Shown piece by piece: positions 61,489 through 61,641 of a stretch of 64,000 nucleotides of DNA (positions are counted from its first letter, which is position 1; each line of letters opens with the position of its first letter). The position numbers and the translations under genes were made by a program. Location: IMG/VR virus record IMGVR_UViG_3300047560_002175, positions 1 through 64,000 of that record. One strand, given 5' to 3'. The stretch is from a virus (Duplodnaviria > Heunggongvirae > Uroviricota > Caudoviricetes). The notes under the pieces were generated by a model. That model was not told the origin of the DNA. It searched no databases and was given only the letters and a program-made list of their open reading frames with translations.

Positions 61489-61525
61489 AATTTTCCTTAT
61501 TGTTATTAAAAGTTAAAAAAAGAGT

Positions 61526-61556
61526 GTAGTTGTTCTTTTGTGTCAGGTACAACTAC
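61526..61556 (-). terminator. Rho-independent terminator (8-bp stem GTAGTTGT...ACAACTAC plus U7)
   Basis: Minus strand reads GUAGUUGUACCUGACACAAAAGAACAACUAC followed by UCUUUUUUU. Confidence 0.65.
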
Positions 61557-61641
61557 TAAACCTCGTGAGAGCAGGCCCATTCCGGTCATTTCGCTTCAGC
61601 GGACGCAGATTACTTGTATTAAGTGCCGGATCTGCGAATTC
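61557..61641 (-). ncRNA. Candidate structured 3'UTR RNA (GC-richer 85-nt segment between the vWA stop and the terminator)
   Basis: Stem CGCAGAU...AUCUGCG. Complementary CCGG loop segments. Local GC is clearly above the genome background. Confidence 0.3.

Follow-up and report, generated by a model that had tools for sequence, protein, structure and literature searches.

Bacterial and phage Y RNAs are encoded on the same strand as Ro60 genes and within 4 kb of them (PMC4201824), and the Ro60 protein of phage phiLo binds Yrl RNAs that are encoded by the phage itself (PMC12135203). Salmonella carries an rsr-yrlBA-rtcBA operon, and phage Ro60 genes accompanied by Yrl RNAs are likewise known (PMC4201824, PMC12135203). 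Here, we describe a structured RNA of 114 nucleotides (nt) that occupies a comparable place in the genome of a virus of the Caudoviricetes (IMG/VR record IMGVR_UViG_3300047560_002175, positions 1 to 64,000; this stretch of 64,000 nt is referred to below as the window). The RNA is encoded on the minus strand at 61526-61639 and lies on the same strand as a gene for a protein with the Ro60 fold, starting 3 nt past the TAA stop codon (61644-61642) of that gene, which codes for 469 amino acids (aa). On the comparative evidence presented below, it belongs to a new and widespread RNA family without a match in Rfam, common to phages and some Proteobacteria.

Comparative evidence for an RNA family

The original prediction saw in this region a GC-rich, structured 3' untranslated region (3'UTR), in which a 7-bp stem with a 19-nt loop could form a pseudoknot through a CCGG in that loop, and proposed it as a candidate small RNA (sRNA). 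The base composition was confirmed: the 85 nt past the stop codon have a GC content of 50.6%, against a window mean of 34.9%, and only 1.3% of all 85-nt windows reach this value. The stem CGCAGAU/AUCUGCG with its 19-nt loop is also present. The window sequence by itself, however, does not go beyond chance, as the minimum free energy (MFE) of its single-sequence fold has a z-score of -0.37 and a perfect 7-bp stem also arises in about 10% of shuffles; support for the fold therefore comes from the comparison across genomes. A fold of the plus strand, which scored slightly better (z -2.2), was rejected, since the flanking genes, the transfer RNAs (tRNAs) and the G-U pairs all indicate the minus strand. 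Both flanking open reading frames (ORFs), that of 469 aa (61642..63051) and one of 290 aa starting at 61488, are on the minus strand.

Relatives of the 469-aa protein, which contains a DUF2828 domain, exist in the thousands; 80 IMG/VR loci encoding them were fetched (phage loci are designated here by L numbers), and the DNA past each stop codon was read. The element recurs after DUF2828 stops in several lineages and carries compensatory changes. Its first pseudoknot helix, PK1, is CCGG:CCGG in the window, CCAG:CUGG in L001, CCUG:CAGG in L013, CCUACA:UGUAGG in L021 and CCCAC:GUGGG in L055, while the long-range helix P4, UGAAGC/GCU(C)UCA in the window, becomes GGAAGC/GCUCUCC in L021 and GAUACAC/GUGUAUC in L055. 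A search pattern derived from the conserved 3' half (ATGGGC..GGTTT..CCYGACACAA) is present in at least 120 IMG/VR contigs and in 17 stretches of GTDB representative genomes, 14 of which are true copies.

A covariance model, R1, was built from 20 minimal copies; it encodes nested helices only and leaves PK1 out. Run on 100 sources, namely the window and 99 phage loci, it matched 101 copies, of which 74 are distinct. The copy described here is its only match in the window and is full-length (56.6 bits, E 5.8e-11, model positions 1-101). Across the 74 distinct sequences, 97.2% of the cells are paired, compared with 77% in shuffled sequences and 38-49% when the partners are slid, and two-sided, compensatory changes are found in 21 of the 29 pairs. 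The pairs of PK1 are 100% paired and covary in all four positions (CG/UA, GC/AU/CG), even though they lie outside the model. Both the stem and the pseudoknot of the original prediction are thus supported by covariation, in both cases across 74 distinct homologues. In addition, the RNA shares 90% identity with the copies in L001 and L003, compared with 77-78% for the neighbouring coding DNA, and together with the covariation this bears out the view of a conserved structured RNA under selection. Taken together, the comparative sequence data show this to be a genuine RNA family in which the predicted elements P1, PK1, P4 and P5 form. Two diverged copies of the RNA, 425 nt apart, are found within a single locus, L116 (855-955 and 1280-1388, minus strand), and the same is seen in L192.

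No described family accounts for the RNA. The whole window gave no match to Rfam 15 at the gathering score, a permissive search (E<=10) of the window, phage-consensus and Methylocapsa copies returned only chance-level matches, and no match over the RNA itself was obtained at the gathering score in 16 loci; the Rfam scan that had been suggested as a check thus returned no known family. ARAGORN found neither a tRNA nor a transfer-messenger RNA (tmRNA) in the window, and blastn searches with the window region and with the consensus did not find the RNA in 50,697 phage records. In the literature on DUF2828, phage Ro60 and catalogues of phage structured RNAs, it appears undescribed, the supplement of the 10,006-csRNA catalogue (PMC10690425) lying outside this search.

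The alternative that the region is the tail of a longer, frameshifted vWA reading frame, which the original prediction had raised against itself, does not hold. The 469-aa frame is complete, homologues align over residues 1-467 of 469 and have their stops 0-4 codons past the end of the alignment, and the invariant residues R466 and Y467 lie 2-3 residues before the stop of the window protein. Since the reading frame is complete and its homologues stop at the same place, the RNA region is not a frameshifted coding tail.

Predicted architecture

Read 5' to 3' on the minus strand from the stop codon, the window copy runs UAA-G-AAUU-CGCAGAU-CCGG-CACUUAAUACAAGUA-AUCUGCG-UCCGC-UGAAGC-GAAAUGA-CCGG-AAUGGGCCU-GCUCUCA-CG-AGG and continues as UUU-A-GUAGUUGU-A-CCUGACACAAAAGA-ACAACUAC-ACUC-UUUUUUU. 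In the family as a whole, the 5' half consists of P1 (6-7 bp), whose loop opens with the 5' strand of PK1 and may contain a further hairpin, then a UCCGN linker and P4, a CG/CG step followed by a bulged helix of 6-7 bp, which encloses GAAA, the 3' strand of PK1 and AUGGGCU. The 3' half comprises CG(G/A)GG-UUU and then P5, a hairpin of 7-10 bp with the loop CCYGACACAA(N3-4). Minimal copies measure about 97 nt, the window copy 114 nt and the family about 100-125 nt, and the near-invariant unpaired blocks are UCCG, GAAA, AUGGGCU, CGGGGUUU and CCYGACACAA.

In the window (all positions on the minus strand), P1, the first helix of the model, pairs CGCAGAU (61630-61636) with AUCUGCG (61604-61610); it is 96.7% paired, and four of its six pairs covary. 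Its 19-nt loop, CCGGCACUUAAUACAAGUA, includes an optional ACUU/AAGU hairpin (61612-61624), a variable insert that is absent from minimal versions, so that the loop measures 11-13 nt in minimal copies and 19-32 nt in those with the hairpin. The 5' strand of PK1, CCGG, lies within this loop (61626-61629), whereas its 3' strand, also CCGG (61582-61585), is part of GACCGGAA in the loop closed by P4; at the edge of PK1, U61630 is able to pair with A61581 as well. A competing pairing of CCAU in the P1 loop with AUGGG was rejected, as it is not kept in copies with inserts. The 5' strand of P4 (61593-61601) consists of CG (61601-61600), a bulged C and UGAAGC (61598-61593), and its 3' strand (61564-61572) of GCU(C)UCA (61572-61566) and CG (61565-61564). 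Five P4 pairs covary, and P4 is also the MFE structure when its segment is folded in isolation. A local hairpin, CGC-UGAA-GCG, that could form from the same nucleotides is not the conserved feature, since covariation favours the long-range helix. Directly 3' of the first P4 strand stands a conserved stretch (61586-61592) made of GAAA (61592-61589), which is invariant among phage copies, and a UGA linker; the invariant AUGGGC (61575-61580) in the alignment links the 3' strands of PK1 and P4.

The 3' half appears to contain a second pseudoknot, PK2 (helix 5), in which AGG (61561-61563; GGG in most copies), followed by the invariant UUU (61560-61558), would pair with CCU (61545-61547) at the 5' end of the P5 loop. 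PK2 is 100% paired (GU 65, GC 7, AU 2), and a rival nested pair, 55-97, is mismatched in both distinct sequences that have an A there, the window being one of them. Yet its changes are one-sided only, so that the alignment makes an H-type pseudoknot, with UUU as loop 1 and an A-rich loop 3, likely without proving it. P5 itself (61526-61556) pairs GUAGUUGU (61556-61549) with ACAACUAC (61533-61526), is 98.6% paired and covaries in all seven pairs; its predicted energy is -9.6 kcal/mol (z -2.8). The 15-nt P5 loop holds the near-invariant CCUGACACAA (61547-61538), with the consensus CCYGACACAA.

A run of seven U residues (61515-61521, minus strand, from reading of the sequence) follows P5 after the 4-nt spacer ACUC. 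The original prediction had a separate terminator following directly on the structured region: a hairpin and a U-run are indeed present, but the hairpin is the RNA's own helix P5. As a terminator it would combine an 8-bp stem with three GC pairs, a 15-nt loop, a 4-nt spacer and U7, and a consensus terminator scanner made no call. The U-run 3' of P5 is confined to the clade of the window, the sequence in L001-L003 being UUUUAUU; in other clades, P5 is followed by a separate GC-rich terminator, a tRNA or an ORF, and most copies lack the U-run. P5 and U7 are probably a weak intrinsic terminator in the phage clade of the window only. The terminator-like appearance of P5 and U7 in the window, together with the placement of the RNA after the last gene of an ABC-transporter operon in Cupriavidus, could be taken to mean that the element acts only in cis at 3' ends, as a terminator, a barrier to 3' exonucleases or a 3'UTR-derived base-pairing sRNA, and a triplex-type H pseudoknot, loop 1 being UUU and loop 3 rich in A, would be expected to resist unwinding. 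We regard such a role as quite improbable. Besides the lack of a U-run in most copies, many are situated inside tRNA arrays or directly behind promoter-like sequences with no upstream mRNA to protect, about 100 nt of conserved tertiary architecture exceed what termination needs, and the conserved unpaired blocks, being short and built into the fold, do not resemble the seeds of base-pairing sRNAs.

The Ro60-like neighbour and its gene cluster

The 469-aa protein encoded directly upstream of the RNA (61642..63051, minus strand) combines a helical ring with a vWA domain and matches Pfam DUF2828 and DUF7788 as well as phrog_850, annotated as 'RNA-binding protein'. A sequence-level search of the PDB with this protein gave no match. 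Its AlphaFold (AF2) model has a predicted local distance difference test score (pLDDT) of 76 and a predicted template modelling score (pTM) of 0.73, and the top five Foldseek matches of this model in the PDB are all Ro60/TROVE proteins, with about 500 aligned columns and E values from 7.6e-9 to 2.3e-5: phage phiLo Ro60 (9kop/9l5y), Deinococcus radiodurans Rsr (2nvo), Xenopus Ro (1yvr) and human Ro60 (9nen). As the best full-length fold matches are all of this kind, the predicted structure shows the neighbour to have the Ro60 fold, a TROVE-type ring plus vWA. The 'vWA gene' of the original prediction does contain the vWA domain, but the whole protein is Ro60-like. DUF2828 is present in 710 cultured phages.

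A sigma-70 promoter that agrees with the consensus at 12 of 12 positions (TTGACA, 16-nt spacer, TATAAT; 63109-63136, minus strand) precedes the Ro60-like gene and is likely to be the start of the transcript that carries the RNA. A weaker promoter-like site (61670-61698, minus strand; TTTACA-17-TAAAGT, 9 of 12 positions) lies within the 3' end of the same gene. Its -10 hexamer, TAAAGT, is identical to that found 5' of the standalone RNA copies in L083, L100 and L120, and the site could yield a separate RNA transcript with a leader of about 27 nt.

Further downstream on the minus strand are an AAA_33 P-loop kinase (59274..59831), which is weakly polynucleotide kinase-like (Pnkp/PNK matches under the curated cut-offs), and a metallophosphoesterase-like protein (58734..59264), which is PdeM-like (E 7.5e-9, under the cut-off). 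An orthologue of the kinase (53% identity) is located directly 3' of the RNA in L173, L087, L090 and L124, and in L173 it is followed by an orthologue of the phosphoesterase (55% identity), so that the complete order of Ro60-like gene, RNA, kinase and phosphoesterase is seen there. The slot directly 3' of the RNA is variable: in the window it is taken by the 290-aa gene (60616-61488, minus strand), with RTX or type I secretion-target-like repeats, which is absent or replaced in L091, L141 and L185.

Other genes of the window were noted in passing. A 108-aa ORF on the plus strand (60225-60551) looks HNH-like by eye and has no Pfam match. Host-like genes near the RNA, all on the minus strand, encode translation initiation factor IF-1 (58091-58309), a ClpP protease (56477-57058) and a UvdE UV endonuclease (53959-54987). 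An AmoC/PmoC gene (55405-56175, minus strand; Pfam PF04896, E 2e-121) suggests that the window derives from one of the 'pmoC phages', huge freshwater phages of methane or ammonia oxidisers. A 4041-aa ORF (29085-41210, plus strand) is followed by ORFs of 683 and 1788 aa.

An independent gene of phage tRNA arrays

In many loci, the RNA keeps the company of tRNAs. The following counts refer to 120 RNA loci with 122 copies, among the matches listed for the 3'-half pattern. Same-strand tRNAs share the locus with 90 of the 122 copies (6.7 tRNAs on average, none on the opposite strand), and in 53 a same-strand tRNA lies within 150 nt of the RNA, with spacers of 5-8 nt on either side. A DUF2828 gene is found in 37 of the 120 loci, on the same strand in every case, and 30 of these 37 co-resident RNAs stand directly past the DUF2828 stop (coordinates read by eye), behind protein groups that are 62-80% identical to the window's. 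Conversely, 58 of the 80 DUF2828 loci contain tRNA genes, and all 367 of these tRNAs are on the strand of the DUF2828 gene. The window is syntenic with L001-L003, in which a tRNA-Gly is situated about 0.4-1.4 kb past the point that matches the end of the window; in its close relatives, the nearest tRNAs are about 1.3-2.9 kb upstream of the DUF2828 gene.

Several standalone phage copies have promoter-like hexamers just upstream, as judged by eye (TTGACA-17-TACAAT in L184 and TGTATAAT in L095 and L105). The 14 proteobacterial copies, all confirmed by R1 at 50-79 bits, come from Methylocapsa acidiphila B2, Cupriavidus sp. AU9028, Methylobacterium sp. J-077 and Ca. Burkholderia brachyanthoides and from metagenome-assembled genomes assigned to Bosea, Rhizomicrobium, Janthinobacterium, Stellaceae, Granulosicoccaceae and others. 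In the bacterial copies, a -10-like GCTAYGTT lies 4-6 nt 5' of P1; with this element directly before P1, they appear to be autonomous genes. No conserved neighbour gene common to the 14 copies was found. It is these promoter-like sequences, the packing into tRNA arrays and the isolated bacterial copies that show the RNA to be an independent gene associated with phage tRNA arrays. The earlier description as a 3'UTR-derived RNA does not survive this comparison, since the same RNA is found behind promoter-like sequences of its own, packed between tRNAs and isolated in proteobacterial chromosomes.

The cultured T4-like phage KVP40 (NC_005083.2 160286-177719) has its DUF2828 gene KVP40.0300, annotated as 'RNA-binding protein', 3.4 kb downstream of a large tRNA array on the same strand, so that the link between tRNA arrays and Ro60-like genes reaches cultured T4-like phages. 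Some other RNA elements were seen in the same surroundings. In L096, an Rfam freshwater-2 RNA (RF02980, 77.8 bits; 13570-13650, plus strand) lies about 150 nt from the RNA copy, on the opposite strand. In L079, ARAGORN predicts a permuted, two-piece tmRNA gene (4148-4534, plus strand) that overlaps the 3'-terminal codons of the Ro60-like gene and reaches further downstream; it is followed by a tRNA-Gly and then by the RNA. Among DUF2828 genes without the RNA, two hairpins are seen repeatedly 3' of the gene, the motif GTTGTAGAAATACAAC / GTTGTAATAATACAAC and an anticodon-stem-loop-like GGGUGU-ACUGCAA-ACACCC; loci with these two features are L004, L007, L009-L011, L030, L033, L034, L041, L047, L053, L056 and others, and both hairpins may be clade-specific terminator or processing signals.

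The tRNA setting bears on whether the RNA has anything to do with the Ro60-like protein. It might be a stable RNA of tRNA arrays that stands alone, such as a tRNA-related mimic, a decoy or a cofactor derived from proteobacterial hosts, and adjacent to DUF2828 genes only because both belong to one transcription unit. The closest analogues would be the T4 species 1 and 2 RNAs (rnaC and rnaD), which are of similar size (about 120-140 nt) and unknown function, are encoded on the same strand within a phage tRNA cluster and are presumed to be released by tRNA processing. The exclusive same-strand association with tRNAs, at spacings like those between the tRNAs themselves, speaks for this possibility, as do the isolated bacterial copies with their own -10-like element and the many DUF2828 genes without the RNA. 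On the other hand, 30 of the 37 co-resident copies abut the DUF2828 stop in several protein groups, and the window and its close relatives retain the RNA directly 3' of DUF2828, whereas the nearest tRNAs of those relatives are about 1.3-2.9 kb upstream of that gene. Homology to rnaC or rnaD was rejected, as R1 had no match at E<=1 in the T4 tRNA region (L201) and the sequences are dissimilar by eye. We consider a stand-alone RNA somewhat doubtful, yet scarcely less probable than the role beside the Ro60-like protein that is proposed below.

The gene context argues against a riboswitch or another cis-regulatory leader. A Shine-Dalgarno sequence and a start codon do follow several copies at 10-30 nt (L094, L096, L109, L139 with UUAGGAAAC..AUG and L206 with GGAGG..AUG). 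However, the downstream ORFs come from many unrelated families, the largest cluster having six members, many copies precede a tRNA or a convergent gene, and the bacterial copies lack a common neighbour. As no single functional class is found downstream, this explanation was rejected as very improbable.

Comparison with ribozymes and other structured RNAs

HDV-like ribozymes (named after the hepatitis delta virus) form a nested double pseudoknot whose elements follow one another as P1-P2-P3-P1'-P4-P4'-J4/2(C)-P2', and a G-U pair marks their cleavage site. The RNA described here resembles these and the related theta ribozymes in being pseudoknotted and directly downstream of phage tRNAs, and in having a P1 loop that pairs past a CGAAA-type junction. 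With the local hairpin CGC-UGAA-GCG in place, an HDV-like or theta fold is attractive; it was rejected because covariation supports the long-range P4, which encloses the 3' strand of the pseudoknot. Moreover, the RNA has no invariant unpaired C, its first P1 pair is free to vary (GC 29, UA 18, AU 8, CG 5) with no conserved G-U, it is about twice the size of minimal theta ribozymes and no Rfam HDV model matches it. In topology alone, the RNA also recalls the pistol ribozyme, where a 5' hairpin base-pairs through its loop with a stretch that lies inside the following long-range helix; the pistol P3 hairpin and its conserved nucleotides are, however, absent from the present RNA, and the Rfam Pistol model gave no match. 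A hammerhead core (CUGANGA ... GAAA) was rejected by eye, as CUGACAC lies in a hairpin loop and the elements are in the wrong order.

These comparisons leave a new self-cleaving ribozyme, or an RNA-processing element that would cut polycistronic tRNA or mRNA transcripts whose ends the kinase and phosphoesterase would then heal, as an explanation that we think improbable. In its favour are the compact fold with multiple pseudoknots and near-invariant unpaired blocks, the scattered distribution over phages and bacteria without a fixed neighbour, like that of twister, pistol and hatchet, the position directly after tRNAs, as in the HDV-like theta ribozymes of gut phages (PMC10879173), and a 5' half that is HDV-like in the order P1, P2 strand, P3, P1', ..., CGAAA, P2'. 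This order is nevertheless not that of HDV, because the 3' strand of P4 comes after the 3' strand of PK1. The variable first P1 pair takes the place of a conserved cleavage-site G-U, the C of CGAAA takes part in a base pair and gives way to other nucleotides in some bacterial copies, Rfam ribozyme models fail to match even at E<=10, and no cleavage site can be nominated.

As regards its discovery and distribution, the RNA resembles GOLLD, ROOL, drum and raiA, orphan structured RNAs that emerged from comparative genomics, are often located beside phage tRNAs and are shared by phages and bacteria. It differs from GOLLD and ROOL in its size of about 100-125 nt (against 400-800 nt), and no Rfam model matches it.

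A possible role beside the Ro60-like protein

The reading that we favour, tentatively and at less than even confidence, is that the RNA is a partner or regulator in a phage module of Ro60-like protein and tRNA maintenance. Besides its location, it shares with Y RNAs a tRNA-related, RNA-repair-like genomic setting and a CGAA(A) block. In the window, the RNA is probably transcribed behind the Ro60-like gene from the promoter at 63136-63109, transcription probably stops at its own P5 helix and U7, and the free RNA, rather than an mRNA tail, is probably the functional unit; copies between tRNAs would be released by tRNA processing. The module would comprise the tRNA array, the Ro60-like protein, the Pnk-like kinase and the phosphoesterase. 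By its pseudoknot architecture, in place of the stem and tRNA-like domain of a Y RNA, the RNA could conceivably gate or tether the Ro60-like ring as Y RNAs do for Ro60, a step to which we attach low confidence.

Several observations weigh against this proposal. Within 3 kb of the DUF2828 gene, the RNA is present in only 9 of the 80 loci (71 of 80 are without it), the 14 bacterial copies all lack a DUF2828 gene in their vicinity, and R1 had no match in the 17-kb DUF2828 regions of KVP40 and BUCT-ZZ01. That the RNA adjoins DUF2828 could simply mean that both genes reside in tRNA arrays, or that one ancestral arrangement was inherited. For the kinase and the phosphoesterase, the matches score under the curated cut-offs. 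The hallmarks of Y RNAs are missing as well: there is no terminal stem joining the 5' and 3' ends, with its GNCGAAN0-1G motif (GGUCCGA in animals), P1 and P5 being local hairpins instead; tRNA-like T and D arms are lacking, a T-loop sequence does not occur in the consensus, and Rfam tRNA and Y RNA models do not match in the window. The G-N before the CGAAA of the RNA is not conserved, and the C of this block pairs within P4 and varies in bacteria, a few copies having U or A instead. Two pseudoknots set the RNA apart from Y RNAs too, and its neighbour is a protein of the divergent DUF2828 type rather than a canonical Pfam TROVE protein; the majority of DUF2828 genes are without this RNA, and bacterial copies are without a nearby DUF2828 gene.

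A bolder version of the proposal is more doubtful still. In it, the RNA, as an undescribed class with two pseudoknots common to Proteobacteria and huge freshwater phages, would be the RNA subunit of a phage particle for tRNA repair or quality control, made up of the Ro60-like ring, the kinase and the phosphoesterase, or else a new ribozyme acting on tRNA-array transcripts. Either outcome, if true, would constitute a second, structurally unrelated solution to the role of Y RNAs.

Implications

For annotation, the lesson is that what looked like a 3'UTR plus terminator is a gene. Orphan structured RNAs with covariation of this extent are rare, and those found in the past have turned out to be riboswitches, ribozymes or scaffolds of ribonucleoproteins. 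If the RNA is not a partner of the Ro60-like protein, it would still be a new family of about 100 nt that is well suited to structural work and to screens for ribozyme activity or ligands. If it is such a partner, it would provide a handle on Ro60-type rings in phage infection and would indicate that the function of a Y RNA can be built on a different fold. The RNA connects a DUF2828 protein that is common in phages, the tRNA arrays of huge phages and a small RNA that phages share with their hosts.

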